A DNA stretch of 64,000 nucleotides from Leptogorgia sarmentosa. Lineage: Eukaryota. Within the stretch, counting starts at the first letter, position 1; every line of letters starts with the position of its first letter. The translations under genes and the position numbers were made by a program. Location of the stretch: contig OZ210885.1 of NCBI GenBank assembly GCA_964658305.1, positions 16,182,001 to 16,246,000 on the forward strand, read 5' to 3'. The notes beneath the pieces are model-generated. The model did not search any database. It had not been told where the DNA came from and saw only the letters and a list, made by a program, of their open reading frames with translations. This document shows positions 5,605 through 64,000 of this stretch, one piece after another.

Positions 5605-6511
5605 TAATTAAAATCCAAATAGTTTGAAGTAATTAGTATAGGACGGGAATTCCCCTAAAAATACTGATTGGCCATGTAGGAATGAATATTGATGAGCCAC
5701 AGGAATATAACGCCGACAGTTATGGAATTATAAATGTTGGAGTAAATCCGATCGTATTAACGGTGTGATAACCAAACTTCGTCAGGAAAATAAAGTGTAT
5801 ATAAACGATAATGTAGCAGAGTTCCAGTGACGAATGACAAATAGTTCACGAGATATTGGACCAACACGGAATGACTTTAGACATAAACAAATGATTATAG
5901 TTTCACGCTATAAATCCATATAATATTGGAAAACAGGAAAATCGCACGAACCACGGATCGAGAGAAGACAATAAATATATCAAAATGATCCAAATGACGA
6001 TACGAATACAGTTCCGTCAACGAAATTGGAGAAATATATGTGAATGGCGAGAAAAATCCGGGTAAACGCAATAAAGCATAACGTTTCCAACATAATTAAT
6101 ATTCAAATAAATTCAAAAATAAAACCAACGGTGAAAAGGTCAAAATCCAGATATCTTGAAAAAAAAGTATCTTGAGTATATAGAACTATGACACGGAGAT
6201 ACAGGACGGAATCGCAGTTCACATACGAGTTTTCACCTAGAAAGGACAATCCGCAATGAAGATACGAGACAAAATCCAAAACGAACACAATTATAGCGTA
6301 CGGCACGATAAGTGGACCAGTACAAGATGATAAAAACTCCAATATAGACACGCGACGATGACCAATTGGTATGACAGGTGGATAGGAATGTTCCAGACGA
6401 TCTTACGAATATTTTGATACCAAAAGTAGCATTCAGAAGCACAGATTAGATGTTGGAAATGGCCAGATTTAACAGAGCTTTCTCCAACGTAATCCGGCGT
6501 GCGTGCGTGCG

Positions 6512-6528
6512 TACTACACTTGATCTTA
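6512..6528 (-). ncRNA. U2: U2 snRNA gene A, fragment 2 (nt 22-38, includes branch-point recognition GTAGTA)
   Basis: Reverse complement TAAGATCAAGTGTAGTA matches U2 nt 22-38 exactly. Confidence 0.9.
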
Positions 6529-6681
6529 TTTTGATTTATTAAACGTTTTAGCTATATACAGAACGGAGTGCAATGTTCATAAACTAAAGTTCGGTGAAGA
6601 TCATACACATCGATAAGCGAGCGATTGATTGGCCACTGGCCCACACAACTAAAATATTAAAAGTCAAGCGCATTGTGCCCA

Positions 6682-7251
6682 TCAGCCCTCGAACTCGATC
6701 TTATTACCGGCGAGGATGGATTCTATAATTGTTTTCTTCGTGTCTTTGTCAAGTTTGTTTGAGCATTCCGGATGTGTGGAAGCGTAGAAGACGGAAAATG
6801 CGTATCGAGTGTCCTCAGGTAGGTTTTTTAGGTCGCGTACTGCATCTTCAGTTAAGTCGGGCAGGTCTGTATACTGTTTCTGGGCGTTGAGATAGGTTTG
6901 GATCATGTCGTATCTGCTGAACGGAATAGGAGAAGGCGTTGTGCCAGTTGGTAGAACCGGCTGCCAAACGTCGGAATAAGTCAAGTCGACCAACGAGCTC
7001 GACCACTGATCAGGGCTGATTTGTTTTAACAGGTTAGGAGGGAGCGGAGGCAAGGCTGGCGATGTTGGATGCCGAATCTGGAGCGTGTCGCGGTATGTTT
7101 GCCTGAGCGCTGGAGGGAGCCGGGAACATAAGGCGGTGATTTTGGCGAAGTCAGGATCAGTGGCTTTTGAACCAAGAACGTGGGCTCGTAAGTACTGACG
7201 TTCATACTGAGCATAGGTCGGGATCTCAGGCTTGTCCTTCTTCGAAGTGAC
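6682..7251 (-). pseudogene. C-terminal half of the ORF1-like protein of copy 1
   Basis: Open frame VTSKKDKPEIPTYAQYERQYLRAHVLGS...FSRYDMIQTYL...FYASTHPE aligns with 22768-23544 (KKDKPDVPTYDQYEREFLRANILGS...FYASTHPE). Confidence 0.85.
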
Positions 7252-7563
7252 GACATGTGTAAGCGATATTCGAGAATTCTTACTAATAGTCGAGAAATGT
7301 ATCCATTATTCGAGAACTTAGCTGCTGTATGCGATAGTCGAGAAAATGTAAACGATAGTTGAGATTTTCGTCTGCATTTTTGGTCAGCGGCAGTACATGG
7401 TCGGAAACCATCGGAATATACCGTTTGTTGTCATGTATGGAATATGATATTATGACATGTTTATATTTCCATGTGCTTATTTCCATGTGCTTCAGTGCTT
7501 GTCAGTGGTGCTTTCGGTCGCAATAAAATTGTCAAAAAACTGATTTAAATTAAATATTTATAT
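7252..7563 (+). repeat. Left terminal inverted repeat
   Basis: GACATGTGTAAGCGATATTCGAGAA...CTGATTTAAA is the reverse complement of 12256-12563, with few mismatches. Confidence 0.95.
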
Positions 7564-7592
7564 ATTATTTATGTCATGTGGAGTTGAGCATC

Positions 7593-9077
7593 ATGGCGGA
7601 TGATGTGAATGATGTGGAGGAGTTGCAGAATTTTCTTTGTGCTATTGATAGTTTGTTTAATCAGTGCCGGAGATCTCAATGCAATCGGGATTCGATAGGA
7701 TCGGAACATTGCAAAATCAAAATGGAAGACAACATTCTTATCGTAGTTGCTATAAAGGCAGCTGTAGATGAAAATGCAGCTGCAGATTCATCGTTAGGAG
7801 TTTTGCTCAATAATTTGATCGCTGCAATGGAGAGAGAACTCGAAAAACTAGCCGAGATTGTAGAGAATTGTCCTACCGAGGAAACAAGAAATGTTATTTC
7901 GCTTTTGCCCAGCACGGGAGGAAGACCTGCATATAATATCTCCAAGGTACAAATCGAACAGTTGAGGGAAACAGGATTAAAGTGGTGTAGTATTGCAGAA
8001 CTTTTGGGTGTGTCCGAGCGAACGCTACAAAGACGACGAATAGAATTTGGAATTGAACCAAATTTCTCAGAAATTTCAGATCATGAACTGGACAATCATA
8101 TCAGAGAAATTCTCCAATTGACACCATACAGTGGTGAGTCATACGTTAGAGGTGGCTTGAAGGGAAGACAAGTAAATGTCCAAAGACGCAGAGTTAGAGC
8201 CAGTATTCAAAGAGTCGATCCAATTGGTAGGAGCATACGAAAGAGGTATGCAATTTGTCACCGTGTCTACAATGTTCGTGGACCAAACCATTTGTGGCAT
8301 ATTGACTCGAATCATAAATTGATATCATGGAGATTTGTGATTCACGGTTGCATCGATGGCTTTAGTAGAGCAGTTATTTACCTAAAGGGTTGCACAAACA
8401 ATAGAGCTGACACTGTTCTCGGTTTGTTTGAAAATGGTGTGAGGGAGTTTGGTTTACCTTCTAGAGTGCGAGGTGACCATGGTGTTGAGAATGTTGATGT
8501 CGCAAGGTACATGGTCTACAATAGAGGCACAGATAGAGGCAGTTTTATTGCTGGTAGAAGTGTCCACAATCAGCGTATTGAGCGGTTGTGGGCAGAGGTG
8601 AACAGAGTTATGACAGCACTATATAAGGATTTGTTCCAGTTTCTAGAAAGAACTGAACAGCTTGATTCCTTTAACGAGGTACATCTATTCGCCCTTCAGT
8701 ATGTTTTCTTGCCTCGCATTAATGTATCTTTAGCTGAATTCCAGAGGCACTGGAATCATCATGGAATGAGAACAACAAATCACCAGTCACCATTAGCATT
8801 ATGGCACACTAACATGATAATGGCGGCTCCTGACGATTCAAGTGTTATTAACTGGGAATCCTATGGAACTGACTACAGCACTTCAGCACAACCAATTCAA
8901 ACAAACAACAATATTGTGATCCCAAATTCAGATATTGAACTCACTGAAGCACAGCTTCATTACCTGCAACAAATGGTAGACCCTTCACAAAATGATGGAA
9001 ATAATGGTATACAGCACTTTTTGAATACAGTGGACATTGTTGCTGGTTTCATGGGTGATGAAACAGTAGACATTTGA
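7593..9077 (+). CDS. DDE integrase/transposase (rve-like core, N-terminal HTH)
   Basis: Intact single-exon [32 protein letters not shown]. Catalytic motifs: [40 protein letters not shown]. Confidence 0.9.
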
Positions 9078-9489
9078 CTGACTTGTATTATTAAAAAGTA
9101 TAGCTGGCCAAAGATCTGGGTAATAGATTTGGTAGTCAATGTTCATACCCAAAATAACAGGGAAAAAACGCATTAAATGTAAATTGTAAACTATTTTGTC
9201 AAAACAATGTAATAACACAACAAAAAATCTATATAGTTATCCGCTAAACAATGTGAAACTGTGGTAATGTTTGTCTTGGTTCTTGGCAGTATTAACATTT
9301 ATATGTACTGTTGCATTAAAAATTGTTACATTACACAAAAATGCCAATAAATGTTTAGCCATCATGATGGTAAAATCTCATAAAAATCCTTGATAAAATC
9401 CCTGTAAAAAACAAGGGGTGTATAATCCACTGATCTGTGCAACTTAAACCATACCAAATCTGAACAAGTTATCAACTAGTAAGTACATT

Positions 9490-12248
9490 TCAAACAATGT
9501 CAAATGACCATGACTGATACCCCCTAATAATATTTAGGAATTCTTCCGAAAGAGCCAAATACGATTCGTACGTTGAAGGTAGCTCTATCAAAGGTGCACA
9601 TGTGCGGGCTATGGGCCGCCTTTCTAAACCAGTCATGGTATTGAAAGTAATGGAGATTGATTCACATGTGATGATGTCACTTCCTGTGCAAAAATGCAAG
9701 AACTTTCCCAATGTATGGCCTTCCAGGGATTTGACAAATCGCTTCAGATGGGCAAGACTTTCTCTTTCAGCATCATTGGAAGGTTCTGCTTGAAATAGCT
9801 TGATAATTTTTTTCGAAGAAGCAACTTTGCTTTTGTAGAACTCTTTGAGACCATCAAAGGTCCGGAATTCTGGATGACCTTGTAACAAATGCAATATAGG
9901 CGCCCAACAGTTGACAATGTATCTCGGTTTCTGTATCAGCTCTTGGTGCGCTAACTCATGGACAATTTCTTGTATGTTTTCTTGTGATGGTAGTTTGAAA
10001 CACTTCAAAGAAGACAGAAACTCGATGACATCTGTAGCATCTTTATCAAAGGTATCACCAAGACACTGATCTAGAACATCTTGATCTTCACATGGGGTGT
10101 ACTCTTTAAACGATGAAAGTAGAAATTCCAACGTGATGCATTCTTCCCCAAACAAGCATGATGCAATAAAAAGACAAGAAAGTTGGAGTGGGAAATAGCC
10201 ATACTTTTGGTACCCATAGACAAGGATCCGTGCAATAGCTTGCTACTCACGTTTCTGCATATCATGCCTAATGAATGGTGTTTTCTCCTTTCTTCCTACG
10301 GTTAATGATATGTAACAATTGTTCTAAAAATGGGTCAAAATATCTAATACAACACCTCTCCCCTTGCCTTTCTCCGGTTCACCACGTGCATCAATCACAA
10401 CCACATCAAGGTAACAGTTTAAAATACTTGGATCAGTAAATATTTCAGTTAGATCTTTACGAATGGTGGATCGATGGACAGTGACTGTTTTGGGAAGCAT
10501 TGGAGTGTACATTGATATTAATTCCAGATCATCTACAAAATCAAACAAAGTAAATAAATTAGTTCATTTGGTAGAACTGAATTAGAATGTAATATTTTTA
10601 GTAATTCACCAAACTTCTAAATGACAAGTAAATCATCGTCAATTGCCCATACAAATTAATAAGTTGTTTGTAGACATCAACAGATCCCAGGCCATTTTCC
10701 ACTTATTGCAGAAATGACATTGCAAGCAAGTGTTTTTATCCAATCATATTGCTCAAAATTTGTTTTAATTAGATGTGAACACTCACAGCAGACTAGCCAT
10801 TTGGTTTTGGATGAGTGAGCATATTTAAGGATATTCAAAACTTCAAGGATACTGAAATCATACCTTCATCCATGTCAGACAAAACCTGAGCCGTTTCCTG
10901 ATGTGGGCTATCAATCTGAGCAGGTTGGGTGTTACCATTGGCACTAGGGTCGTTGGAGTAGAAATTTGCTGAAAGGGGTTGAATGGTGGCTTCCACTGGC
11001 ATAGGATTGTTGATATTTGTCACAAGGGGTTGTGTATCAACATTAGCTGGAGGGTGGTCGGAGTTGACATCTGTTGAACAGGGGTTGGTGGTTGAATTCA
11101 TTGGATTAAGTCGGATGTTGACGTTAGCATGTGAGTGTTGGGAGTTGGTAGGGGTCTGGACGGTAACACTGGAAGCAGTGTTAACATTGCTTTGGTCAGT
11201 TTGGTGATCCAGGAAACACTCCTCTATTTCTTCTTCTTCTTGTACCAGGTTGGAGGGGGGATTTGATAACTCATTGGTTTGCTAAGGATAATAAATGTAT
11301 ATACACAATACCTCAATTAAAAATTCACCACAAATATTAAAACAGGATAAATGCTCAATATCTTACTTGGGCAAAATTAAATGATAGTTTTAGAAATAAT
11401 TGTAATATATTTTCTAGGGAAAATTGCATGAATGCAAGGTTGTCAATGGCAATATTCTGGCAGTATTCAGGAAGTAAATGTTTTTTTCTCAGAATATTAG
11501 TGATACTATAATAATCACAGTGCTTCTCTCTACAACATTTATTTATATAAAATACCTGTGACACAATTTCATATGATGCAAGTTCAAAGAGTTGTTGATT
11601 TGGGCGAATATAAACGGGCTTGTTTCTATAAAGTCGTTGTAGCAAGGCACCATCTATACCATGTTGGCCAGGTGCCAATGTTGGGACCACCAAACTTGAA
11701 TGAACAGAAATTAGTAACTCAATATCCACACCGGGTGGAATTTTACCGTCAAAAGCCTCGATTATCGTTCTTTCGACTTCTATCATCGACTGACCTCTTG
11801 TAAATGTGCACCCTGAAATAACGTGCCCCCTTTCATTTAGAGCAAGACGTGTTCCTTGCCGGGGTACGACTTGAGTGTCAGGACCGTTCAGTAAAACCAA
11901 ATCTTGCATAAAAGGCTTGTTATCGCTAGCGTTTGCCTTTTGTTTTCCCTCCTTGCGAGCCGAGCGCAAACGTCGTTGGCCTGAAAAATTTTGTCTAACT
12001 GAATAAGGTCTATATCTATTATTTGTCGGTTCATTTGACGATCTTGAGGTGAAGGGTGTTGAAGTAGATGGTCCACCTGAGTTTGTGCTTCTGTCTCTAC
12101 TTGTAAAAGTACGTCTCACTTCTGACTCGATGTTGTCTTGGTTCGGTCGCCCTGATATCGCATCAGACAGTTCGCCTATCCTTGAAAACAGCTGCCTTAT
12201 GACATCATTTGATTCGAGATTTTGCTGTTCATGATTCCTGTCTACCAT
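9490..12248 (-). pseudogene. Spliced HECT-domain E3 ubiquitin ligase (G2E3-like) passenger gene with two nonsense codons
   Basis: Predicted exons ~12248-11556, ~11281-10864 and ~10532-9490 with GT/AG boundaries. HECT-like motifs: EPEKGKGRGVV, ARILVYGY..YGYFP, FLHFCTGSD, RRPIARTC..LIELP..Y. In-frame TAG codons at ~10324 and ~10245 sit where Trp is expected. Confidence 0.8.
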
Positions 12249-12255
12249 ATTTCCA

Positions 12256-12563
12256 TATATAAATATTTAAATCAGTTTTTTGACAATTTTATTGCGACCG
12301 AAAGCACCACTGACAAGCACTGAAGCACATGGAAATAAGCACATGGAAATATAAACATGTCATAATATCATATTCCACACACGACAACAAACGGTATATT
12401 CCGATGGTTTCCGACCATGTACTGCTGCTGACCAAAAATACAGACGAAAATCTCAACTATCGTTTACATTTTCTCGACTATCGCATACAGCAGCTAAGTT
12501 CTCGAATAATGGATACATTTCTCGACTATTAGTAACAATTCTCGAATATCGCTTACACATGTC
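12256..12563 (-). repeat. Right terminal inverted repeat
   Basis: Reverse complement of 7252-7563. Confidence 0.95.
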
Positions 12564-12631
12564 TCAGCTATAGTATATATTTCTCATACATTGTATGCAG
12601 TTCTCGACTATTGCTTACAGTTCTCAATATA

Positions 12632-13495
12632 CTTTTGTCCAGTTTGGCTTGCCATAGGCGACGCCTCAACAGTGCCGGACAACTGCCGTTTGCTCGTATC
12701 TGGATTCACCGGAGTCGATGTAGAGGAGCTGCCCTCAGACACAGTGTCTTCATGTGTCTCAGACACTTCCATAGTTTGCGCGGGGGGAACCAGGGAGCCA
12801 GGAGGGCCGTCATCCGCGGAAGCGGTATCGTTCTCATCCGCAGCAGGAACAGAACCAACAGGATTAGTAGTCGCAGCCCCGGTAGGCGTCGACGGACGTA
12901 CAATGGTATCTCCTACAATTTGTGCAGGGGGAACACCACGGGATTTCTTGAACGGAGAGTCTTTAGATTGGTGACCGGTCTGTTCGCATCGGAAGCACTG
13001 CTGGACTTGTCCTCTGTAGAACACATTGACGGGGTAGTTGGCGATGGTCAGACGGGAAGGTATTGGCTTGCGAAGTTCCATCTTAACAGAATAAACCGAG
13101 ATTCCAATACCTTGAACAAGTTCGTGTCGGATTTTTTGCACGTTGCCGTAGTCTGAAAGCCGCGACTTTATCGCGTTTTCGGTCGTGCCATACATGACCC
13201 GGGTGAGTTTAACCCATTGCGTGTTGGGAGCGGCGACGAGTTTGACCAGCTGTCCACGGAACGTCAGCCCGGTGTGGAGCAGGGCTTCAGCCTGGCGACC
13301 ATCTCGGCAGTGCATGACAAAAGTCGATGCACCGCTTTGCATGATGTTGTCAATTTTCGTGGAGGCATCTGGAACTTGGCGGATGGAATCATCAATGATT
13401 TCTTTCAAAGTGACAGGGATAGTTGCAGCAGCTGCCATAACTTCATCAGGTAGCGTGCCCACCAGGGCTCTTGCAGCGAAAGGGACAGCAGCCAT
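12632..13495 (-). pseudogene. N-terminal half of the ORF1-like protein of copy 1 (RRM-like region plus degenerate CCHC knuckle)
   Basis: MAAVPFAARAL...QWVKLTRVMYG...IPSRLTIANYPVNVFYRGQVQQCFRCEQTGHQSKDS is Tx1/ZCCHC3-like. It is truncated by the DNA transposon. Confidence 0.85.
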
Positions 13496-13638
13496 TGGAT
13501 CAGGAACCAAGGACCACCAAACGTGAACAGCACCACGCCAATCCCCAACACCAAAGACTTCGTAAAAATCTCTTCTTCTTGAAATCTCTTCTTAAATTCT
13601 CCAAATAGCGGGACTCTTCTCACTTGATTAGAATATCG

Positions 13639-13662
13639 TTAGCCAAAAGGCCGAGAAGCGAT
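13639..13662 (-). ncRNA. U2: U2 snRNA gene A, fragment 1 (nt 1-24)
   Basis: Reverse complement ATCGCTTCTCGGCCTTTTGGCTAA matches the U2 5' end exactly. Confidence 0.95.
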
Positions 13663-13920
13663 GCCTTCTTCGCCGTTCCATGCCATCTTTAAGCGAGAAA
13701 AGCAGGTCCTCCTTCGCGCCGCCATTAGCAGCCGCGGCCGCGAAATCGCAAGCGAAACGAGCCGCAAACGTTGTGGCACGCGGTGATGATGACTCGTACA
13801 ATCAATCGTTTGTGCGCTGCTAATTAATTCGGGTGCACGCGCGAAACTTCTCGCGATGCACGCGCGAAACTTCTCGCGATGCACACGTGTTCTCCACGAA
13901 TTTCTGGCGATTTTTTGGCG
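13663..13920 (-). promoter_or_regulatory. U2 upstream promoter region, copy A
   Basis: Highly similar to 24301-24560. It has GCTTAA near -30 and lacks ~15 bp (including TTCACCT) that is present near -55 in the other copy. Confidence 0.7.
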
Positions 13921-14123
13921 GGTGCACGTGGCACTTTCTCCCATTCGCTGGCTCCGTGACCGATTCGGGAATGGCAAATGAGCGACATGCATTGAGTTGA
14001 ACGAAGCGTGTCCGGTTGCACTTCGGTTGGAGAAATGACGTGTGCATTTGAATTGGAAATGGTTGTTTAACATAAGTCTAGTATAAAATGCATGATCGGT
14101 TGGCAGCGCGTGTATGGATTGAT

Positions 14124-19612: not shown

Positions 19613-19876
19613 GTAAATCTCATGAACAGCGATGCTGCTTAAGCTTTGTTGGCCAACGAGCAGCTACCCAAGACTATTATAACATGAATGTGTTAGGCTG
19701 CTTACCATAATTCGTTTGTCGTCGGTCATCCGCACTGAATATGTCATTGTATACGTATCTCTTGCCAAATGCCGGTTCGCGGCGAGGATCTATCTGTAAA
19801 GTCAAGAATAATTTGTAAGAATTTTTTTGAACTGATAGTGAGTGAGAAATCTTCCCCCAATAATGAAATTGGGGGA

Positions 19877-20026
19877 AGTGGGCCATACTCGGAGGTAGTG
19901 CAATACCGAGACAACCCGTGGCCAGGGCGAAGCAAGCTTCAATCCCATGGCCGAGGTCCAAAATCAGTTTAATATATGAGTTAGGACATTGCCTAACATA
20001 TCAGATATTAAGCTGATAAAAACAGA
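19877..20026 (-). ncRNA. U2: U2 snRNA gene B, 3' body (nt 39 to end)
   Basis: Reverse complement reads TCTGTTTTTATCAGCTTAATATCTGATA...GATTTTGG (Sm site)...GCTTGCT...CTCGGTATTGCACTACCTCCGAG (SL IV). Confidence 0.92.
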
Positions 20027-22601
20027 AATTTTTTATTATGGATAAAGAAATGTTACAAGCTATGTTATATATATACGGGTTAATGACTTAGAAGTTAATG
20101 ACAATAGAATGTTATATACAAAGGTTTGAAATGACTGATTGAAACGTTCAGTAGGAAAGAAGTTGTTTGGAAACTACTACTATGGTAATATTATTATAAG
20201 TTACTATAATAATCTAAGAAGTTCTAGTGAATTAGATCTTTTTAAAAGACGTTTGATAAAGTTATTGTGGGACACCTGTAAGGTGTTGGACATAAATGTT
20301 TGTAGAGATGCGAATGGCATCTGCGCAACATAGTTTCCTAAATAGGGTTCTATATCTTAAATTAATGTCAAGTTCGTTAAGGACAGCTTCATTCTCGTTG
20401 TACCACGCACCAAGGGATCCAACGACGAAACCGAACACTTTGGCATCTTGGATGTGTTGCTGGAAGTAGTCGATCAGGTAGTCGTACTTGTTGGTTTTCC
20501 TTTGGGCAGCCATTTCCAGTGATGTATCATTGTTCTCGTAGGGGCATGTGATGTCAATGATGGTTACTTTGTTTCCTCTACGAACAACGATATCTGGACG
20601 GTTAATACCGGGAGCTCCAGGCACTATTTGATCAACTGTGACGTCGCCAGTATTGATTGCATTTAGAAGGCGATTTAGTATTCGGTCGTGTCTAGCTGTG
20701 ATGGCCGTCATGTTTGGTTTGCAGTGGCATATGATGTGGGGTAGCGTTTCGGTGTTATTTTGGCTGTGACATCGTCGACAAACTGGACTGGTATCCGACC
20801 AACGGCTTTTAACATCATTAGTTCGTAGGGTATTGGTCCTTGCGCGATGGATAAACCTCCAATCACAGAATCGAAGGCCCGTTCCGTCAAACGCCCAGTT
20901 GTTGGTGGTGGCAATTCAACATGACTGCAGGCATCTGGCGACTTTACCTTGATCTTTTAGGGATAGCAAGTCATTTGCGTGTTTGGTTTTGAGATGGCTT
21001 TGAGATGGCGGTGAAGGAATGAGGATATTTTGTGGGGTGAATCTGTGGTTGAACCATTGATTGAAACGGATATGTTCGTTGTAGCGTTATGGATGGCGAT
21101 GTTTAATGCTCTGCTGGAAATTCGGCATCTTGACCAAAGGGAGGCACTTGAGTTTTGGTGATTGGCAAGGGGGCCCTCTTGGAAACCTGAGAGGAAACCA
21201 TCTATTACTTCGCTGGTTGGGTTGTCTTTGCATTTAACACAACGTTTGACAACTGATGTAAGTTGGTCACGGGAGATACTCTTAATGAGTGGATCGTTGG
21301 CTAAGAGGATCTTGACGGTATGGACCACAGTTTGAATGTGTCTCTCATCAAAGGGATCCTGGAACCCAAGACCTCCAACCGATTTGTCAGCGAACAGGTA
21401 TGCATTTGAAACCCTCTTTGGTAGGTGACAGATAGATTTAATTGTCTCTATGAGCTTTGACCAATAATCTTTAAGAGAATCACGTGGCACAGGACATGAT
21501 CTGAGTGCGTAGGTTAAACCTGGTTGGATAAAAGTTCTGATAGCATCAAGTTTCTGCCATGGAGTTAGAAGGGAGTCACGGATTTTGGAAAGGTCTTCAA
21601 CTACTTTTTCGGTAATTGATTTCATGTCTGTAGCATCATAGATTAGACCAATGGGTACACCAAGGTAACGGTAGGATTCTTCTCTCTTAAGGCATGGGAT
21701 TTCCCCGTTTTCGACAATGAAGTGGAATTCAGAAACTCTATCAGGGTGTTTGTTGGAGCATGTTAGGCTGAGGGTAGCGCATTTATCTGGTCTGAATGAA
21801 AGGTTAAGGGTGTCAGCGGCAGAGGAAACACTATTCAGAAATTCTTGAAGGCCATTCTGTGTTCGGCTAATTAACACGAGGTCATCAGCGTAAGCCAGGA
21901 TAGATATTAGCTGGTTGTGTAGTTTAAAAGCCATCTTGGGGTTGTTTTCGGCTTTTGAAATCACTGTTCTAATTAATAGTTCGGTTGTAAGATTGAACAG
22001 GATTGGGCTGATAGGGCAACCTTGTTTAACGCCAGCGTTGGTATTGATGGGTGATGTTTCGTCTTCTCGCGATGTGCGTATAACAGTTGAGGCATTAGTG
22101 TATATGTCCTTAATTAAGTCTGTGAAGGTTGATGGGAAGCCCATATGGGATAGAGATGTATAAATGGCTTCGTGGTTTATGCTACCGAAGGCGTTTCGTA
22201 AGTCCAACCATGCAATGTAACAATCCTTATAGTTTCTTTTACAGTCCGAGATAATTGATTGACGGGTAAACGTATGTTCGTGGCATCCTTCAGCGGGTCT
22301 AGCACTCTTTTGTTGGGTGGAGAAAGTAGGTTGTGGTGGATGGCAAAGGTTGTAGCTCTCGATGCAAGGATAGCTGTGAAAAGTTTGTACAAACATGACA
22401 TTAAAGCAATAGGTCGAAAGTTGCTTGGATCATCACTGTTTCCCTTTTTGTATATGAGGATGGTCGTGGAGGTTTTCCAGACAGAAGGGATTTGTTTGTT
22501 ATTTAGACAACGATTGAAGATGAGTGATAAGACTTTACAGCTTGGATCAACTTGTCGGAGGTGGCGATATTCAACTCGGTCTTTGCCAGGTGCAGAATTA
22601 G
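20027..22601 (-). mobile_element. 5'-truncated Utopia-like RLE retrotransposon at U2 nt 37/38
   Basis: RT motifs: AWLDLRNAFGS, GVKQGCPISP, LAYADDL, YRYLG. CCHC: RRCHS...ETLPHIICHC. RLE: RHDRIL...RPDIVV...IDITCPYE...KTNKY. The 3' end is AATAAAAAA, and the element is bounded by U2 nt 22-37 and nt 39 onward. Confidence 0.92.
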
Positions 22602-22617
22602 ACTACACTTGATCTTA
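22602..22617 (-). ncRNA. U2: U2 snRNA gene B, middle fragment (nt 22-37)
   Basis: Reverse complement TAAGATCAAGTGTAGT. Confidence 0.9.
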
Positions 22618-24276
22618 ATTTGTTTAATAATCGTTTTAGCTATTTACATAAGGCGAAAGTGCAATGCCCGCAAGCCAAAGTCCAAAAGATCATATACACT
22701 GGACTAGACCAGCTAGCTGTTCGTTAATGGCTTAAAAGCCCACACATATAAAAGAAAGCGTCCAGCGCTAATTGTCCTCGTAGCTAATGGGACACATGTT
22801 CAGGATGGCCTCATAGAGACCCTCCTTTATGTCCGAGTTTACACTGCCCATGCTCTCGGGGTGCGTGGATGCATAAAAAATGTCATAGGCTATCCGCGCA
22901 TCAGATGGTATGCCATCAAGTTCTTTCTGGGCATCAGCAGGAAGGTCGGGAAGGTTTGCAAATTTGTCTTTGGCATCAACATACGTCCGGATGCGATCAT
23001 ATTGGGCAAAGGATATACCAGGGGGGGAGGTACCAGGAGGAACCACAGGATCGAGCAGCGTGGAGGTGGATAGATCCATACAGTCAGTCGGCCACTGGAG
23101 GGAGTGGAGACTGTTCAACATGTCCGAACTTGGAGTCGGAAGAGCCTTCCAAACAGGGTGACGATACAGAAGGGTTTTCTTGTATTTCGCGTGTAACTCG
23201 GGCGGAATCCGGCGTGACACCGAGGACACCCGTTCACGATCAGCAGCTGTTACATTGGACCCGAGGATATTCGCTCGCAAAAACTCACGTTCATACTGGT
23301 CATACGTGGGCACATCGGGCTTGTCTTTCTTCGCAGGAAGAGCAGGACCAGATGTGGATCGCTGACGCTTTCCAGTATCTGGATTAAGCATGGTAGACGT
23401 GGAGGAGGTATCATCTTCAGGGAGTTGCTCGGAATTGTTCCCACTGGGAAGCACAGGAGAGGCGGAGGTATCTGAGGCAGCTCCAGGCGGAGTAGGGGGT
23501 GTCAAGGGAGGGGGGTCATCGACCACCATAGCAGGACCGGCCACGGTCTCACCAATGATACGGGCTGCAGGAACTTTACTGGTCTTCTTGAACGGGCAAT
23601 CTTTCGAGATATGCCCCGTCTGTTCGCAACGAAAGCACTGTTGTACTTGGCCGCGATAAAAAACATTAACTGGATAATGCGCGATGGTAATACGAGACGG
23701 GATGGGCTTTCATACTTCCATTTTCACAGAGTAAACAGAAATTCCAATCCCGTTGACGAGTTCTCTGCGAATTTTCAAAATGTTGCCATACTCGGATAAC
23801 CGCGATTTAATTGCATTTTCGGTGGTCCCATAGACCACCCTCGTTAGTTTGATCCACTGGGTATTTGGAGCAGCGACCAACTTGACCGGATGCCCACGGA
23901 AGGTCAGCCCGGCATGAAGTAGCCCTTCAGCCTGACGACTGTCATGACAGTGCAGAACAAAGGTTGTAGCCCCAGACTGCATAACATTATCGATGTGTGT
24001 CGATGCTTCAGGAAGTTGACGACAGAAGTCTTCTATCATCTCTTTCAACGTGACAGGAGCGGTAGCTGCGTTCTCCATAACAGCAGCTGGAATCGTGCCC
24101 ACCAGGGCTCTAGCGGCGAAAGGGACTGCAGCCATTGATACCAGCGAACCAACGACCACCGACAGCAAACCAACAGGACGCCAATCCTCAGCCAAACTTC
24201 TCCAAAACTTCTTCTTTTTCTTCTTCTTCTTCTTCTCTTCAAGATACTTCGTTAATCAACAGGACTCTTCTCTCTT
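22618..24276 (-). mobile_element. ORF1-only (HAL1-like) Tx1-type retroelement, copy 2 (~1.66 kb), at U2 nt 22-24
   Basis: Flanked by U2 nt 1-24 and nt 22-37 (TAA duplicated). The 5' end GAGAAGAGTCC is shared with copy 1. It has a GAA-rich leader, a single ORF and a ~150-bp 3' UTR. Confidence 0.9.
22768..24135 (-). pseudogene. ~455-aa ORF1-like protein (RRM-like region, CCHC knuckle, disordered linker, conserved C-terminal domain), one in-frame stop
   Basis: ORFs 23710-24195 and 22768-23544 are in the same frame, separated by TGA at 23710-23712 where copy 1 has Arg. Knuckle: CFRCEQTGHISKDC. Confidence 0.88.
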
Positions 24277-24300
24277 TTAGCCAAAAGGCCGAGAAGCGAT
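24277..24300 (-). ncRNA. U2: U2 snRNA gene B, 5' fragment (nt 1-24)
   Basis: Reverse complement ATCGCTTCTCGGCCTTTTGGCTAA. Confidence 0.95.
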
Positions 24301-24560
24301 GCCTCCTTCGCCGTTCCACGCCATCTTTTAAGCGAGAAAAGCAAGGTGAAAAAATGCGGTCCTCCTTCGCGCCGCCATCATCAGCCGCAACAGCGAAATC
24401 GCAAGCGAAACGAGCCGCAAACGTTGTGGCACGCGGCGATCATGACGCGTACAATAAATCGCTTGTGCGCTGCTAATTAATTCGGCTGCACGCGCGAAAT
24501 TGCTCGCGACGCACGTGTGTTCTCCACGCATTTCTGGCGATTTTTCGGAGGGCGCAGTGG
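24301..24560 (-). promoter_or_regulatory. U2 upstream promoter region, copy B (candidate PSE TTCACCTTGCTTTTCTCG at about -51 to -34)
   Basis: Conserved with 13663-13920 and immediately 5' of U2 +1. The PSE assignment is an inference. Confidence 0.65.
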
Positions 24561-24585
24561 AGGGCGAAAATTTCAAAATTTATAT

Positions 24586-25069
24586 TATAGCAAAATTTCA
24601 CCACATTTAACCTACCTTGATAAATTAAACGCCACATCGTCAATGACTCAAAAAAAACAAGATTGCTTCTTCATATATCACTGTTATGAAGGGTGTTAGA
24701 GAAGTTGGTTAAATTATAGCAAAATTTCACCATATTTAACCAACCTTGATAAATTAAACGCCACATTGTCAATGAAGATTGCTTCTTCGTATATCACTGT
24801 TATGAACAGTTTTAGAGAAGTTGGTTAAATTATAGCAAAATTTCACCATATTTAACCAACCTTGATAAATTAACCGCCACATCGTCAATGACTCAAAAAA
24901 ACAAGATTGCTTCTTCGTATATCACTGTTATGAACGGTGTTAGAGAAGTTGGTTTAAATATAGCAAAATTTCACCACATTTAACCAACCTTGATAAATTA
25001 CGCTACATGGTACATGACTATAAAGAACGAGTTTGCTCCTTCATATATCACTCTTATTAAGGGTGTTAG
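24586..25069. repeat. Tandem repeat, ~115-130-bp unit, 4 copies
   Basis: TATAGCAAAATTTCACCA(C/T)ATTTAACC...GGTGTTAG recurs at ~24586, 24715, 24831 and 24959. Confidence 0.9.
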
Positions 25070-26562
25070 TACGATGGCCGAGGAGGGCCACTTCAGACTT
25101 CTAACTTCTAAGTTCCGATTTCTGACTTCTCACTTCCGTCTTCTAACTTCCGCCTTCTAACATCTGACTTCTAACTTCCAACTTCTAACTTCCGACTTTT
25201 AACTTCCGACTTCTAACTTCCGACTTCTAACTTCCGATTTCCGAATTCGAATTTCTCCCTTCAGTATGGATCCATCAAAGGCGTCTCTGGAGCGAAGAGA
25301 TAAAATTTTAAAACTTGTTTCACAAATAAGAAAGGAAGAAAAAGATCAACGCCTGAGCGAAAAGAGAAAAATGGAGGTTCAAGACAAGAAGAAGAAGGTA
25401 AATATCGAATTAGACAATGTATGTTTTCTGAGATTTGTGGTTGTTGATCTTCACTCTGCAGGGGGCTGTTGTCCCTTCAGTCTTCACTCGCACAGAGCAT
25501 AAATTTGATAGTTTATTCCATTAAATCAAGATACTAAATACGCACGTATACTTGAGTGAAGTGTTAAAATTGAGGTTGATTATATTTGTAATTTGTATAG
25601 ATTCTGTGTATATTTGTAATTTGTGACAACATCATCAATTTGTTGTCTCTTTTTCCTTGTTGATAATATAGCTTGTGCATTGTCTAGAATACAAGGAACA
25701 ATAGTATTATACAACATTTGTGACAAATATATCTCTTTTATTGACACTGTCCTATCAATTAACCATTTGTAGAAACAAACTCAAAGTAAGGGGTTTATTT
25801 ATCTTGGCTGGAGACATAGGCATTCTGTATCCACCCCATATGTGCAAATACGTGGCATTGAAAAAGGAGGAGGACTACGGAGAATCCCATTCCAAGAATT
25901 TACAGTCTCCCAATTGCTTGACGAAGCCAAAAACATCTTTTTCCCCGAAGGTAAAAGTGGTTATGCGAAAGCATGTGAGCTTGATCTCTGCAAATGCAGC
26001 TTAGGAAATTTCACTGGACAACCTCTACCATTAGATGATCCTGACTTTTCATTTTCTCAGTATCTGGCTGATAATGGATTATATGCATCCCGTGTGAGAT
26101 TTTATTTACTCACAACACTCAAAGATCAAGATACTCTCGTCAACAGTAATTCAAGCTGTGGATCTGGACAATTTGATCAAAATTTGTCTACAACAACACA
26201 AACGGAATGTGGCAACGATGATGCCTTTGATCCAAGAATGGACAATGAAAAAGTTGAATTTGAAAAAGATGCATCTGAAAGTCTCTTATATGTTGATGAT
26301 AAAAAAAGATCAATTTTGCTGGAATTTTGCCGGCATAAAATCTCAAACTACACAAGTGAGGTTAGTTCCCAGTTTGTAATTGGTTGGGATCATTGCTATT
26401 CAGCTAAATCCAGCAAATTTTTGGAATGTGAACCAAACCTATACCACCCATGTGATCACAATTTTACTGTATCATCTATCACAATCGATAACAACACATA
26501 TGTCAAACCAGTTGTTGACAAAGATGCCTCACAGTCTGAGAATATCATGCAAGATACGTACT
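25070..26562 (+). mobile_element. Left end of a second IS3EU-like DNA transposon, truncated by the 5S array
   Basis: Begins TACGATGGCCGAGG, interrupting the tandem repeat. A 7-mer subterminal repeat (ACTTCYR/ACTTCTA)n spans 25100-25245. A spliced gene follows (exon from 25266; exon ~25772-26560 with YLGWRH...YVQIR...GGGLR...AKNIFFPEGKS), recognised from memory as the N-terminus typical of TE-borne HECT genes. Confidence 0.6.
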
Positions 26563-40407: not shown

Positions 40408-41788
40408 AGGTGATGTCCACTCCGTTCTGCGCATGCTCGCGTTTTGTTTACATGGCATGTTTACGATACATTTTGTTAGAACTTATATAAAGTACTTCAC
40501 GAGATTCGCAACAATGACTTCGCGGTAACAATGGCGGCATATCATTCACACCTGTGATTTACATACATGAATATGGATGAGAGCTTTACACTAGATGAAA
40601 TTGAAGATGATGAAATCCAGCAGGCAGCGGAAATACCGAATATCGACAACATATCGGTTAATAAAACACGCAATTCGTTTTTGGCGATTTGTGGGTGACG
40701 GAAAGTGCGGTTTCTGGGAGTAAGGGCCCCCGGAGAAAACAACATCAGGGTGAGGGTAAGGGCCCTCACCGTTGTGGACGTTGAATCTCATGTCCAAGCC
40801 GGGCTTCCCCCTGGTGAAGTGACCGGGAGATGCAAAGATCAGAGCGAGGATAAGGGCCCCCACTGTTATGGACCTTCCTCTCCTTTGCCGGTGTGAGCTT
40901 CACCGTGGGTGAAGTGTGGCCGTGTGGACACCACTTTCCGCCCCGATGTTCTTTTATTTCCTTTCAAATAGCTAGACTACATATGTACAAGTGTAGTAAA
41001 GTTAAATATGGGTGTCACTGCGTCTTCATGGGAGATAAAGTTAGACATGGTGGAACAAGCTATGCTGGTTGGTTGTCTCTGTCTTCTTTCTTGTTGTGTG
41101 TTTCTTCTGGGTGGGTGGGTGGGTTTTTCAATTTTCCAATGTGTCTACCGAATGGCAGTTAAGACCAGTATGGACTACGGAGGCTTTGATAGCTATTTAT
41201 ATCCGTTGAACAAACTCAGGAATGACGGCTTAACCGAAACCCAATCAGTGACAAAATTAGTTGCCACGAAGGCTTAGAGATTAACAACTTCCTAAGATAC
41301 TTATTTCTTTTAAGCTGTCTATACTTTATGTCTTTTACGTATGTGAAAGAATTTGCTTCTTATTAATCCCAATTTATTACTATGATAATAAATTGGCCCT
41401 TAATAAAACACGCAATTCGTTTTTGGCGATTTGTGGGTGACGGAAAGTGCGGTTTCTGGGAGTAAGGGCCCCCGGAGAAAACAACATCAGGGTGAGGGTA
41501 AGGGCCCTCACCGTTGTGGACGTTGAATCTCATGTCCAAGCCGGGCTTCCCCCTGGTGAAGTGACCGGGAGATGCAAAGATCAGAGCGAGGGTAAGGGCC
41601 CCCACTGTTATGGACCTTCCTCTCCTTTGCCGGTGTGAGCTTCACCGTGGGTGAAGTGTGGCCGTGTGGACACCACTTTCCGCCACTGATCAAACGAAGT
41701 GTAGATCCCCCACGGGAAGCTAGCAGTTTTTTATGGAATTAAACACAGTGATTGGGCAGTACATGGTTACTGTTGATATGGCTAATAT

Positions 41789-42770
41789 TTACAATATGGC
41801 TTTTGGACTAAGTACAGCAGCTAATTGCTGGGGGACGGACTGAATGATTGTTCGTGGTGTACGGATGTATAGTTCATAACAGTCCGAGCGCCATCTACCG
41901 AGAGTTTTTATGAGCCAAGGCGGTAGATTTGCAGCAGCAGCTGTAGTAGCTGCGCCTATTCTAAAACTATGCGGGGCGTACTCTGTCTCGTTATAACCTA
42001 ACATTTTTAAGAGTGCTCTGAGATTAGCGTTAAGTATAGTTCGCGTAAGGGGTTCCTTGGTTTGGAGCAGAAACAGTGGTTCGTCGGGATTAGCTGGGCT
42101 TCGTTGCAGTAGATATTCGCGTAAGGCTGTGACGGCGCATACAGACGAGTGGCTCCGAGCGATAACGAGCGTAGTTCCGTGGCGGAATGGATCGGTCTTT
42201 GATTGTTTGATGCGAACTTGGATGGAGGTTGGAGTGGTGATGTTAGGGACGAATGTGATGTCGTGAACAGCGAGGAAGGTCTTTGCACTGGAGTAGGTAA
42301 ACTCGCTGACGCGCAGGAATCCGAAGAAAGCCAATGTGAAGGCTGCCCAGAGCATGACAGTATCGAGGTCCTCGGAAAACGTGGGACGCAGTAGTGTTGA
42401 AATCTGGGACAGAAGGTGTATGGTGATGGGGTGACGAGGCCGTTTTTGAGGAGTGGAAGTCCGCTTGATTCCCTTTAAGATGCGGTGGAGTTGGAGCATG
42501 GTAGTGGAGCGGAAAGGTTGGTTGTGCTCCACATAGAAGTTGGAAATTGCAGCGAGGTACAGCTTGACTGTTTGGTACTTGACTTTACCGTGGAGCGACG
42601 CAACAAAATACACCAAATTTTCTTCTGTAGGAGGTGGAACAGGGTTGCTGGGTGAGGCAAGGTTGTGAGCAAAACAAAAGTCCAAGTATTGGCGGACCCC
42701 AGAGGAATATGTAGTTCGCGTGGAAGAGGAAATGGCTTGGCCGAGCAGTGTGTTGACTTTTTGAGTTAGA
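41789..42770 (-). CDS. Tyrosine recombinase (Ngaro)
   Basis: FFGFLRVSE, KQSKTD, HSFRIGAAT, LGRWRS, YELYIR. The frame extends upstream of 42685 (LLGQAISSSTRTTYSSG). Confidence 0.93.
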
Positions 42771-44847
42771 CCTGAATCAAGGATTCGGGGATGACGGTAG
42801 GGTGTGGGTAGGCAGCGGGAGCTAGTTGATGGAATCGGTGTGTCTGAAACCGTGATAATGCGTCAGCGATTGAGTTGTCTAAGCCGGGAACATGCTTGGC
42901 ATTCAGTGTGAAATTGTGAATGAGTGTTTGAACGGTAATTTTTCTAACTAGGTCCATTATTTTGTTGATTTTCGAAGATTTTGAATTGAGAATCTGAGTG
43001 ACAGAGACATTGTCGCACCAGAGTATAATGCGTTTGCCGGACCATAGGTGGCCCCAAACTGAGCAGGCAAGATAAACGGGAAAAAGCTCTTTCCATGCTA
43101 TGCTCTGCTGTTCCTTGTGCGCATGAAACTGTTTTGACCACTTGCCCTGAAACCAGAGATCGTTGAAAAACGCGCCATAGCCTAACGAGCCCGATGCGTC
43201 GGTGGAAAACTCGAGTTCGAGTGAATTTGTGGGCGAAATATCGAGAAAAATATTGGAGCCATTCCATTGCTGCAGGAAAACGAGCCACATGGCGACGTCC
43301 TTGCGAAAGGATGAATTTAGCTTTACGTGGTGGTGTGGTTTTGTAACGCCGCGCGTAAGATTTATCATGCGTTGGAGAAAAGCGCGACCGGGCACAACGA
43401 CGCGGCATGCAAATTGGAGCGTGCCGATTAAGGACTGAAGCTCTTTTAGAGTGCACGATTTTTTGGAAAGCCACACTAATAATGACTGTTTTGCTCGCGT
43501 TAGTTTATCCGCGGGCAAGCAGGCGATCATCTTTTCCGAGTCTAAGAGTACCCCAAGGAATTCTAATTCGGTAGACGCCGGATAGGTCTTTTTGTTCGCG
43601 ATAGGAATGTTAAGATTCGTCATAAGTGTAAGCAATTTGCATAAGGATGTCATGCAGTTTGACCTAGGAGGCGGTTCAATCAGGAAAAAATCATCTAAAA
43701 TATGTAAAACATGTTTAATGCCGTAATTGGTTTTTGCGATCCATTCGAGGGCATCGGAAAGCTGATTAAAAATGAAAGGCGCGCTACGAAGGCCAAATGG
43801 TAATACTTTATCGAAAAAATATAGGCCCTGCCAATACATGCCTAATAATTCCCAGTCGTTAGGATGAACAGGAACATTACGGAAAGCAGAACAAATGTCC
43901 GTTTTCGCCATAAAAGAGCCGCGGCCAAGCTGGATAATCAGATTAATCGCATCATCGATTTTTACGTATTGAAGAGAGTAGTTTTCTCTGGAAATGTAAT
44001 CGTTAACGCTGTTGCCGGATGTTTTTGGATGCGATAGGTGAAAAATTGTTCGCCAGTCAGACGAATACTTTTTGGGTACTACGCCGATTGGATAAATTTG
44101 GAAATTGGGGAAAGGCGGGGAAAGGAACGGCCCGGCGGTGCGGCCTAACCTAACTTCATGTAGCAAGTTTTTTGTGACTAGATCGGGGTGGTCGTCCGCA
44201 GACTTCAGGTTGCGTGAAAAACGTGGCGCTCGGGGCCCCTCAAAACCAATAGAAAAACCGGCCCGGAATCCTTGGACCAAATTAGACACAAATAAGGCGT
44301 TAGGATGATTTTTTAATTCATGTTGCAAGTAGGTTACATTAACTGGTGTGATGGGATGAAGGTTGTGGAGGTAGGACTTAACGGTCTCGTTTGGTACTGC
44401 TCGGCTCCGCAGCTCTTGCATCGTGGTCGAGTGCTGAATGGTGGCCAGCGCAGCCTGGTCGGTTACAGCGATGTTTGAAGGGACAGGGAGTAGTGACGCA
44501 GGGGACCTTGCGGTTGTAGTTGCGACAACGATCGTCTGCGGGTCGTTGTGTGGATCTGGTAGGGGCAATAGGACATGCGTTAACGAAGTGGTCGGCGCTA
44601 CCACAGACATGGCACGCCGTCTTTGCGAGCCCGGTAAATTTTTCGAGGTACAGTTGAGGATCACGGTGAGCCCAAGAAACTGAAACATCGTTCGCTGCCT
44701 TTTTGCGGAAGGCGATGTCGTAAGCATACCAGGCCATGCCGGAAAATTTTCGGTGCGCATCACGAATAGCTTGTTGGTAGACGAAAAGTTCAGACGCCTT
44801 GTACGGGAAAAAATGGACAACAACGCGTGCAAAAATGTTGAAGGCAT
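42766..44847 (-). CDS. Reverse transcriptase/RNase H (Ngaro); true start uncertain, overlaps gag
   Basis: WRTIFHLS, KTDICSAFR, LPFGLRSAP, HILDDFF, FLGVLLD, STDASG, IAWKELFP, WCDN, NSIADALSR. Confidence 0.93.
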   Translation of the reverse strand: MPSTFLHALLSIFSRTRRLNFSSTNKLFVMRTENFPAWPGMLTTSPSAKRQRTMFQFLGLTVILNCTSKNLPGSQRRRAMSVVAPTTSLTHVLLPLPDPHNDPQTIVVATTTARSPASLLPVPSNIAVTDQAALATIQHSTTMQELRSRAVPNETVKSYLHNLHPITPVNVTYLQHELKNHPNALFVSNLVQGFRAGFSIGFEGPRAPRFSRNLKSADDHPDLVTKNLLHEVRLGRTAGPFLSPPFPNFQIYPIGVVPKKYSSDWRTIFHLSHPKTSGNSVNDYISRENYSLQYVKIDDAINLIIQLGRGSFMAKTDICSAFRNVPVHPNDWELLGMYWQGLYFFDKVLPFGLRSAPFIFNQLSDALEWIAKTNYGIKHVLHILDDFFLIEPPPRSNCMTSLCKLLTLMTNLNIPIANKKTYPASTELEFLGVLLDSEKMIACLPADKLTRAKQSLLVWLSKKSCTLKELQSLIGTLQFACRVVVPGRAFLQRMINLTRGVTKPHHHVKLNSSFRKDVAMWLVFLQQWNGSNIFLDISPTNSLELEFSTDASGSLGYGAFFNDLWFQGKWSKQFHAHKEQQSIAWKELFPVYLACSVWGHLWSGKRIILWCDNVSVTQILNSKSSKINKIMDLVRKITVQTLIHNFTLNAKHVPGLDNSIADALSRFQTHRFHQLAPAAYPHPTVIPESLIQV

Positions 44848-45445
44848 TGAGCCAGCGTTCTATTGAATCGATTCGTTGGCGTTTGTGTTGAGACATAGAA
44901 ACGGGGATAGAAAACCCCGACCCAAGGGCATCAAACGATATCTTCAAATGCTCGTCGTGACCATCAATGTTATCGGGCAGTAAAGAATTGAAGTCAATGT
45001 ACTCACCATTGCGAATTGACGAGAGGGTTTTGGTTGGCAAGTGTGGCGGGAACGATGGTGAGACCAGTTCTGGTGAGACAGCGGTACTGGTGGATTGTTG
45101 AACCGTGGCGTCGCGAATGGATGAGGAGATCAAGGATTGCAACGTTTCGTATTGTTCAGCCGTAAATCCGTTGGGTTGTCGTTCCGCTTCGGTTGGTGGC
45201 GTAGTTGGACGATCGGTGGCTGATCCAGGTTGTTCAGGGTCGGAGTGAGGTAGATCAGCATCAGCAACTTGGGGTGGGTGAGCACGAAGACGAGCAAGGA
45301 GTGTTTGGCGAGATCCAGTGGCGGAGAGTTTTTGTTGGTCGCAGCGAAGGCGAAGGACTTCAGTGGTTAGCTGGGTTAGATCAGACGACGTCGACTGTGT
45401 AGTACGACGAGAGGCGGTTGACTTAGAGCGTCGGATGCGAGGCAT
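44378..45445 (-). CDS. Gag-like ORF (Ngaro) with SAP-like N-terminus and CCHC/CCCH fingers
   Basis: LTTEVLRLRC...LSATGSRQTLLARL; IRNGEYIDFNSLL; WYAYDIAFR; CHVCGSADHFVNAC; CRNYNR..PC...PCPFKH. Confidence 0.88.
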   Translation of the reverse strand: MPRIRRSKSTASRRTTQSTSSDLTQLTTEVLRLRCDQQKLSATGSRQTLLARLRAHPPQVADADLPHSDPEQPGSATDRPTTPPTEAERQPNGFTAEQYETLQSLISSSIRDATVQQSTSTAVSPELVSPSFPPHLPTKTLSSIRNGEYIDFNSLLPDNIDGHDEHLKISFDALGSGFSIPVSMSQHKRQRIDSIERWLNAFNIFARVVVHFFPYKASELFVYQQAIRDAHRKFSGMAWYAYDIAFRKKAANDVSVSWAHRDPQLYLEKFTGLAKTACHVCGSADHFVNACPIAPTRSTQRPADDRCRNYNRKVPCVTTPCPFKHRCNRPGCAGHHSALDHDARAAEPSSTKRDR

Positions 45446-46526
45446 TCTGCTTTAGGTTTAGTATTTTCAATTTTCAAAAAGTTTTTTCAATTTTCCAATG
45501 TGTCTACCGAATGGCAGTTAAGACCAGTATGGACTACGGAGGCTTTGATAGCTATTTATATCCGTTGAACAAACTCAGGAATGACGGCTTAACCGAAACC
45601 CAATCAGTGACAAAATTAGTTGCCACGAAGGCTTAGAGATTAACAACTTCCTAAGATACTTATTTCTTTTAAGCTGTCTATACTTTATGTCTTTTACGTA
45701 TGTGAAAGAATTTGCTTCTTATTAATCCCAATTTATTACTATGATAATAAATTGGCCCTTTGTTCTTGTAAAGGGACTTGTCTACGTGAGAGCGGGCGCA
45801 ATGCGTGTCCCTGCAAAATTATTTCGCAGTACTGTTCTACAGCATGTCATCATGCAAATTCGCTTTGTATGAACAAGCAAAGTTTATTAGGTGATGGAAG
45901 CGATTCGGATGAAAGTGAATCGAAGTCGGAGGGATACCAACAAGAAACATCGGTAAGTTTCTGATCGGTAAGCTGACTTTCTAGTAGTTTTTCTAACATG
46001 ACTTATTTCATCTACTGACCATAATTGTATAAATATGTCTTCAGTCTTGCTATTTTCAACCTGATTCTTAGGATCATAGTTCAGAATCACTATCTGACAA
46101 CGTGGAAAGATTTCGGGGAAAGCCGAGCACGAGAGGTGGCCGAAGAGGTGGACGAAGAGGTGTGAGAGGACAGAGTCAGAGACGAGGCAACCGGGGTCGA
46201 TCAAGAGGTAGAGCAGAAGGTAATCGAGGACATAGCCGAAGCCCAGTAAGGAGAAGAGGCAGAAAAACCAGAAGAGGCCGAGGCCAAGGAAGATTGGTAG
46301 AGGAAGACAACTCCAGAGAAAGAGCTGCTGAGCATGAACAATAATTAGAGGTAAATTGTAGTGTTAATTGTAGCGTTCTTTATAAACAAACTAGTCTAAG
46401 TACATTAATATATTTTATGTATTATTTACTGTACTCTTCATGTTCATATCAGGTCAAATATTCCAGTAAAATGCATGCGAGAATAACATATAAATTAAAC
46501 ACCATTACATTGCTAAAAAAACACCA

Positions 46527-51455: not shown

Positions 51456-51460
51456 TATAG

Positions 51461-63900: not shown

Positions 63901-64000
63901 CCTGGGAATACTTTCTGTTGTAGACTTGCTTCATTTTGTTGTATGTGTGTTTGTAAGTAGGTTTGCTTTCAATTTCAACTTCAGGGTTTTGTTATTGTTA
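57942..64000 (+). rRNA. 5S: Continuation of the variant 5S array (roughly 25 units, mostly 226 bp)
   Basis: Same unit as 26563-40407. Several copies carry an internal ~40-bp duplication (near 59530, 61716, 63116, 63838). Confidence 0.93.

Follow-up and report, generated by a model that had tools for sequence, protein, structure and literature searches.

Non-autonomous LINEs that have kept an ORF1 are an accepted class, represented by HAL1, HeT-A and Ag-Sponge (PMC5786205). As far as the available part of that paper describes them, the elements characterized here from U2 snRNA genes resemble these three in encoding one ORF1-type protein under selection, in lacking reverse transcriptase (RT) and endonuclease, and in their presumed mobilization in trans (PMC5786205). 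HAL1, HeT-A and Ag-Sponge come from the L1, Jockey and CR1 clades, whereas the ORF1 of the U2 family is a Tx1/ZCCHC3-like RRM-RRM-CCHC protein with a helical domain, and the U2 family, unlike the other three, is fixed at one base of an snRNA gene. The telomere specificity of HeT-A is the sole comparable site restriction known. The ORF1 of HAL1 has the coiled-coil/RRM/CTD organization of the L1 clade, and HAL1 proper was rejected as an identity for the element, whose ORF1 is RRM-RRM-CCHC with zf-CCHC as the only Pfam domain.

Insertion into U2 snRNA genes is shared with Keno (Tx1) and Utopia (RLE) (PMC4640811, PMC4494074). According to the parts of these papers available, both are autonomous and have U2 nt 39 as 3′ flank, whereas the U2 family has a 3′ flank from nt 22 (or 25), a 5′ flank to about nt 24 and no ORF2. 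Keno was rejected for the element, which has no APE endonuclease or RT and a 3′ flank from nt 22/25 instead of 39 (nt 39 would be hidden if a nick at 38/39 was borrowed, see below). Utopia, which has a single ORF with zinc fingers, RT and RLE and U2 39 as 3′ flank, was rejected for element A as well. R2 SIDE and R2/R1 SIDE are likewise non-autonomous and site-specific in a multicopy RNA gene, SIDEs being made from a co-transcript, but they consist of a 5′ ribozyme and the 3′ end of the partner and are located in rDNA (PMC3414825, in the part available), whereas the U2 family is protein-coding and no partner 3′ end was found for it in the window or the runs. The crocodilian SINEU and the U2-headed Tx1-Mar also have U2-derived 5′ sequence, and dependence on Tx1 machinery and on flanking promoters was proposed for them; SINEU is short, non-coding, poly(A)-tailed and inserted in Mariner (PMC4494074, in the part available), whereas the U2 piece of the present family is the target gene with its promoter. 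An ORF1-only U2 element or an nt 22–24 site was not found in the literature searched; Repbase, Dfam and the figures and supplements of PMC4494074 and PMC4640811 could list one.

The window, i.e., the whole stretch of 64,000 nt that was analysed, comes from an animal nuclear genome; it has long 5S arrays, and its U2 and U1 genes lie on the minus strand. Two elements, copies A and B, were found on the minus strand, each after U2 nt 24 and before U2 nt 22. They are broken members of a family of 1.7–1.9-kb ORF1-only elements at U2 24/22, which are probably non-autonomous LINE derivatives, copied in trans by the RT of another retrotransposon from an RNA that would start at the U2 promoter. The order at copy A is promoter, U2 1–24, element, U2 22–37, truncated RT element and U2 39 to the end. 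The features of both copies are as follows:

24301–24560, minus strand: U2 upstream (promoter) region of copy A, very deep in four sequencing runs
24277–24300, minus strand: U2 snRNA nt 1–24, 5′ flank of element A
22618–24276, minus strand: ORF1-only element A, 1659 nt
24262–24272, minus strand: conserved head motif GAGAAGAGTCC of A, its GAGAAG complementary to U2 nt 5–10
22768–24135, minus strand: ORF1 of A, 455 codons, predicted RRM-RRM-CCHC, low-complexity linker and helical C-terminal domain
23710–23712, minus strand: nonsense TGA in ORF1 of A, codon 142 of 455
22618–22767, minus strand: 3′ UTR of A, A/T-rich tail with ATTAAA and without poly(A)
22602–22617, minus strand: U2 nt 22–37, 3′ flank of A
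20027–22601, minus strand: 5′-truncated Utopia-like RT/RLE element at U2 nt 37/39 of the gene of copy A, with RVT_1, CCHC finger and PD..D motif, then U2 39
19873–20026, minus strand: U2 nt 39 to end, gene of copy A (Rfam U2, 104 bits)
13663–13931, minus strand: U2 upstream region of copy B
13639–13662, minus strand: U2 nt 1–24, 5′ flank of element B
6529–13638, minus strand: ORF1-only element B including a nested transposon, ORF halves 13495 to ~12657 and 7251–6682
7252–12656, unstranded: nested DNA transposon in B with rva_4 transposase and HECT fragment, right end uncertain (12631–12656)
6512–6528, minus strand: U2 nt 22–38, 3′ flank of B, then the 5′ end of a second RT element

Each of the two U2 genes has a further insertion at nt 37/38, consisting of an RT element whose C-terminus is of the PD..D type. 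The one next to A (22601–20027) agrees with Utopia in its RT, its PD..D motif and its U2 39 flank. The one behind B is interrupted by a zf-RVT fragment and a 71% copy of 5840–6237 (window ~4330–3400, minus strand). The transposon nested in B has inverted repeats of ~314 nt (TIR match 96.8% over 314 nt) with one arm shortened, and from its TA terminus it may tentatively be called IS3EU-like (PMC10045372, in the part available). Upstream of the promoter of copy A, a degenerate repeat of ~120–130 nt and a short CTTCTAA-type repeat were found at window positions 24580–25262.

Other elements were detected in the window. A third U2 piece (nt 39–50; 1168–1157, minus strand) is followed by the 5′ part of a Tx1-like element with an RRM/CCHC ORF1 (1156–1); this may be a tandem insertion of the Keno type, the target piece being 12 nt long. 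TAAGA before the U2 piece gives an alternative reading as U2 22–28 fused to 41–50. A decayed Tx1-like element with APE, RT and zf-RVT (~19800–14540, minus strand) abuts nt 3 of a U1 gene, ahead of which no U2-like promoter was found. Two tyrosine-recombinase retroelements with RT and integrase are located within the 5S array (40658–45760 and 49256–52579), the first with flanking duplications and split direct repeats (40658–40942/41400–41684 and 41124–41401/45483–45760). Besides, in four 5S copies of the array (59457–59619, 61642–61804, 63042–63204, and 63764–63926) nt 31–76 are tandemly duplicated within the copy.

The first-pass annotation had placed the two diverged elements at the same U2 position with a common 5′ end, and both points were borne out. 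The U2 1–24 and U2 22 junctions are present in A and B, and the only two occurrences of GAGAAGAGTCC in the 64 kb are 4 nt behind U2 nt 24 in A and 17 nt behind it in B. The TAA duplication that it described was recovered in part: TAA is present in both copies, but because the 3′ TAA comes after an A/T-rich tail, the overlap is ambiguous and a 3-bp target site duplication and a blunt join look the same. The description of a single ORF lacking RT and endonuclease also agreed with the Pfam search, in which zf-CCHC was the only domain of the ORFs and the stretch from U2 piece to U2 piece contained neither RT nor endonuclease in A or B, with the addition that neither ORF is intact now, A being broken by the TGA and B by the nested transposon. 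In the elements 141–143 nt precede the ATG, behind a U2 promoter that looks intact. An AATAAA/ATTAAA signal lies 5–6 nt ahead of the 3′ junction, and the element has a conserved 3′ terminus, GTGCAATG...TAGCTAAAAC.

Pairwise comparison of A and B showed 92% nucleotide identity (248/269) for the promoter with U2 1–24, 72% (397/551) for the N-half of the ORF, 61% (333/545) for its C-part, and 77% (117/152) for the 3′ UTR with the U2 piece. This contrast between flank and element is by itself no proof of independent insertion, because U2 arrays can homogenise by concerted evolution. In both ORF halves pS was 0.76, i.e., synonymous sites are saturated and no numeric dN/dS can be given for this pair, while pN was 0.12 over 183 codons of the N-half and 0.39 over 187 codons of the C-terminal domain. 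These values clearly point to purifying selection on the ORF, as had been suggested from the retained protein similarity.

AlphaFold2 (26-row alignment) predicted two RRM-like domains followed by a knuckle, with a disordered linker leading to a helical domain (mean pLDDT 79.9). The tandem RRM fold was matched by Foldseek (E 7e-6) and by VIA (Z 9.0, rmsd 2.9 over 72 residues), and the look-alikes in the Atlas were clusters of CCHC plus ZCCHC3-RBD proteins. The protein showed 27% identity (E 2e-7) to the ORF1 of the Tx1-like element at the left end of the window. With its predicted tandem RRM and CCHC knuckle and this match, it is of the nucleic-acid-binding ORF1 type; the Tx1 affinity of the element is suggested by ORF1 alone, since the element has no RT. 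The helical C-terminal domain of 170 residues, modelled alone, was predicted with a pLDDT of 93 and a pTM of 0.88. Foldseek searches of PDB and BFVD gave no match for it at E ≤ 0.001, the Atlas gave no usable match, and the best VIA match was Z 4.3 over 51 residues. We therefore describe it as a clade-specific, confidently modelled domain lacking a clear structural match, which does not make it a proven new fold.

A protein search gave 39 homologues with 34–70% identity, and a profile search 2026 proteins at E ≤ 0.001. Several deeply diverged lineages occur together in a single species, and some even share a contig: in three clusters the longest contig is 650706. Among the 222 proteins fetched, 12 continue upstream of the element head straight into translated U2 1–24. 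These 12 represent five 90% clusters and one fragment, with three promoter types, and some of the records may be from the same species as the sequencing runs. By back-translation their U2/element junction falls at about nt 24–27, and the heads differ among lineages right at this junction. Of the close full-length relatives, 61 of 62 had the C-terminal domain, compared to 2 of the 68 that scored lower; both of these are family members truncated at the N-terminus. In a tree of 124 rows, from which near-identical rows and short fragments had been left out, the bearers of the domain formed one clade of 35 rows (FastTree support 0.999). The U2 flank was seen in one subclade (22 of these 35 rows), and the other 13, for which flank data are lacking, could belong to autonomous elements.

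Family proteins on contigs shorter than 3 kb leave 207–466 nt beyond the ORF in 13 of 14 cases (median 394), and 1209 nt in the remaining one; for outgroup ORF1s on short contigs the range was 310–915 nt in six of seven. Short contigs were dropped as a sign of ORF1-only units, as outgroup ORF1s without the domain were mostly on contigs of 1.6–2.9 kb; these outgroup elements might be ORF1-only as well. The outgroup ORF1 clusters P0078, P0083, P0087, and P0088 occur in many assemblies on contigs with only 0.6–0.9 kb beyond the ORF, and this recurrence hints at further ORF1-only families. In the cluster of P0087 (P0261, P0263, P0265, P0266, P0269, P0270, and P0273) an endonuclease-like fragment is followed by a translated 5S rRNA piece and, just behind it, by an ORF1 without the C-terminal domain, possibly a 5S-associated relative. 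A metagenome scan gave, among the matches listed, at least six zinc-knuckle loci, all unrelated. In viral and prokaryotic contigs the junction pattern was absent (0 matches), which had been expected. Longer proteins with the C-terminal domain were not found in a search that also missed known relatives of 450–650 aa within its range, and an alignment search for fusion proteins (1144–3265 aa) was negative, which is weak evidence.

Part of A was present in 6 of the 14 sequencing runs listed; the six come from two studies, and none is recorded as RNA. Four runs were compared in detail (X1, X4, X5, and X6), of which X1 may be the source sample of the window itself and X4 is a different sample with the same species label. 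Alongside near-identical pieces, the runs carry diverged siblings, matching in conserved patches alone. Two unitigs of X4, one of 1810 nt at a depth of 35.2 and one of 1758 nt at 11.7 (near-identical pieces have ~3), terminate on U2 22–37, and contigs of equal depths lead step by step across the ORF up to U2 nt 24. Depth was used to pair the two ends of these unitigs, with length as a second criterion for the 1758-nt record. Both thus run from flank to flank and leave no room for ORF2; it is absent from A, B and the two unitigs alike. The same short 3′ UTR ending was found in A, B and at least two diverged deeper unitigs, all lacking ORF2. The same sibling joints were present in X1 at a depth of 740 versus ~70, and also in X5. 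Among the joint rows listed, 5 of 14 reach 24260–24278 (the U2 23/24 junction or the head motif), and 10 of 13 3′-end pieces cover the junction, every one with U2 22–37. The loose ends at the 3′ junction included no non-U2 flank, with a query that held U2 22–37 and so favoured U2-flanked pieces. The junction contig of X1 had a depth of 1700, and a further sibling in X1 and X5 (depth 76 in X1) is followed by a Utopia-like 5′ end. Contigs longer than 2 kb ending at the junction were not found in the runs, where unitigs at this place are often 32–89 nt. The sibling unitigs, which belong to several lineages, are ~4–10 times as deep as the near-identical pieces, and, with depth as a rough guide to copy number, this suggests many copies of sibling elements. 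The flank-to-flank unitigs, together with the U2 read-through in 12 homologues, support from outside the window the earlier reading as an ORF1-only family fixed in its position on U2, and extend it to several lineages under purifying selection.

The proposed mechanism would start from the U2 promoter, which would give a U2(1–24)-element co-transcript ending near the AATAAA/ATTAAA signal. Co-transcription is plausible because the 141–143 nt before the ATG and the 24 nt of U2 lie directly behind an intact-looking U2 promoter. The ORF1 protein would bind its own RNA and deliver it to the ORF2 protein of an autonomous Tx1-type element, which would nick U2 near nt 21–25 and prime reverse transcription. 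The copied U2 leader could then anneal to the upstream target and so produce uniform full-length 5′ joins, as in R2, where uniform 5′ joins result from carried upstream 28S sequence (PMC3774820, in the part available). The TAA overlap would be a fixed feature of the family and not a duplication renewed at each insertion. GAGAAG in the head was predicted to pair with U2 5–10 in both copies (pairing 0.75–0.89 in short local folds), which is a lead only. The autonomous Tx1 partner with the same 3′ end that had been suggested was found neither in the window nor in the runs. Shared tails or heads with the Tx1-like and Utopia-like elements of the window were not convincing, the best being an 18-nt match in A only (p 0.02, uncorrected). 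Direct hallmarks of retrotransposition are thin; there was no poly(A) tail, and no copy truncated at its 5′ end was identified.

The same junctions might arise in an element that has no site of its own, which we regard as rather unlikely. An RNA with a U2 1–24 leader and a U2 22–38 tail would use the Utopia/Keno nick at 38/39, and the leader would anneal upstream and replace U2 25–38. This geometry would yield identical junctions, and Utopia and Keno both leave U2 39 as 3′ flank (PMC4640811, in the part available). RT elements are present at 38/39 in both disrupted genes of the window and behind the further sibling of X1 and X5, and the window and the runs contained no partner for a separate site. 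Moreover, the poly(A) signal is so near the junction that cleavage would be expected to fall inside U2. However, U2 22–37 was found without substitutions in the run contigs (one-base insertions at 22617 and 22622 only) and gave no sign of evolving with the element. Partners of R2/R1 type usually need their own 3′ UTR (PMC3414825, in the part available), and a tail common with the Utopia-like elements of the window was not found. Some heads also resemble a decayed U2 25–41, which would fit an ancestral long duplication from nt 22: an exact 8-mer was found in B, and p was 0.009–0.07 in three of nine proteins and 0.17–0.64 in the other six. This is a weak indication of decayed U2 25–41 in one lineage group, and it slightly favours a genuine nick close to nt 22. 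A separate target site near nt 22 is likely for the element, with hitch-hiking on the 38/39 nick giving the same product.

An old, protein-coding parasite of site-specific retrotransposons that is targeted by RNA homology, with the U2 1–24 leader and the 22–38 tail at a Utopia/Keno nick and a newly evolved 170-residue domain as adaptor to the partner RT, possibly across LINE clades, is an unlikely variant.

It is quite improbable that the copies descend from one ancient insertion that became a variant U2 repeat, spread by unequal crossing-over with gene-converted flanks, and kept its ORF for a host function. Concerted evolution could give 92% flank identity beside saturated synonymous sites, no poly(A), partner or truncation series was seen, and the protein has an extra domain that is conserved and predicted to be well folded. 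On the other hand, both copies in the window are broken, several deeply diverged lineages coexist in one species, the heads vary between lineages right at the junction, and the 3′ terminus is more conserved (77%) than the C-terminal coding part (61%), as expected for a cis element in priming. It is very improbable that the copies arose singly, by deletion from an autonomous Tx1 element carrying this ORF1. ORF2 is missing, and the short 3′ UTR ends in the same way, in A, in B and in at least two deeper diverged unitigs, and identical deletions are unlikely to have happened independently, although many of the 13 of 35 clade rows without flank data are on long contigs where ORF2 could follow.

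The lineage is best read as an old ORF1-only non-autonomous LINE of the HAL1/HeT-A kind with a Tx1-type ORF1. If this holds, the three origins of ORF1-only non-autonomous LINEs described in the available part of PMC5786205 would be joined by a fourth, the first found fixed to an snRNA gene within the literature searched. Its junctions also show a third geometry of insertion into U2 besides those of Keno and Utopia. Several lineages have coexisted at one base of the small U2 gene family until synonymous saturation, which is relevant to the question how a limited target is divided among site-specific elements. As the elements are compact and uniform, the role of an ORF1 that works with a borrowed RT, and the making of a long translated retroelement RNA from an snRNA promoter, would become testable.
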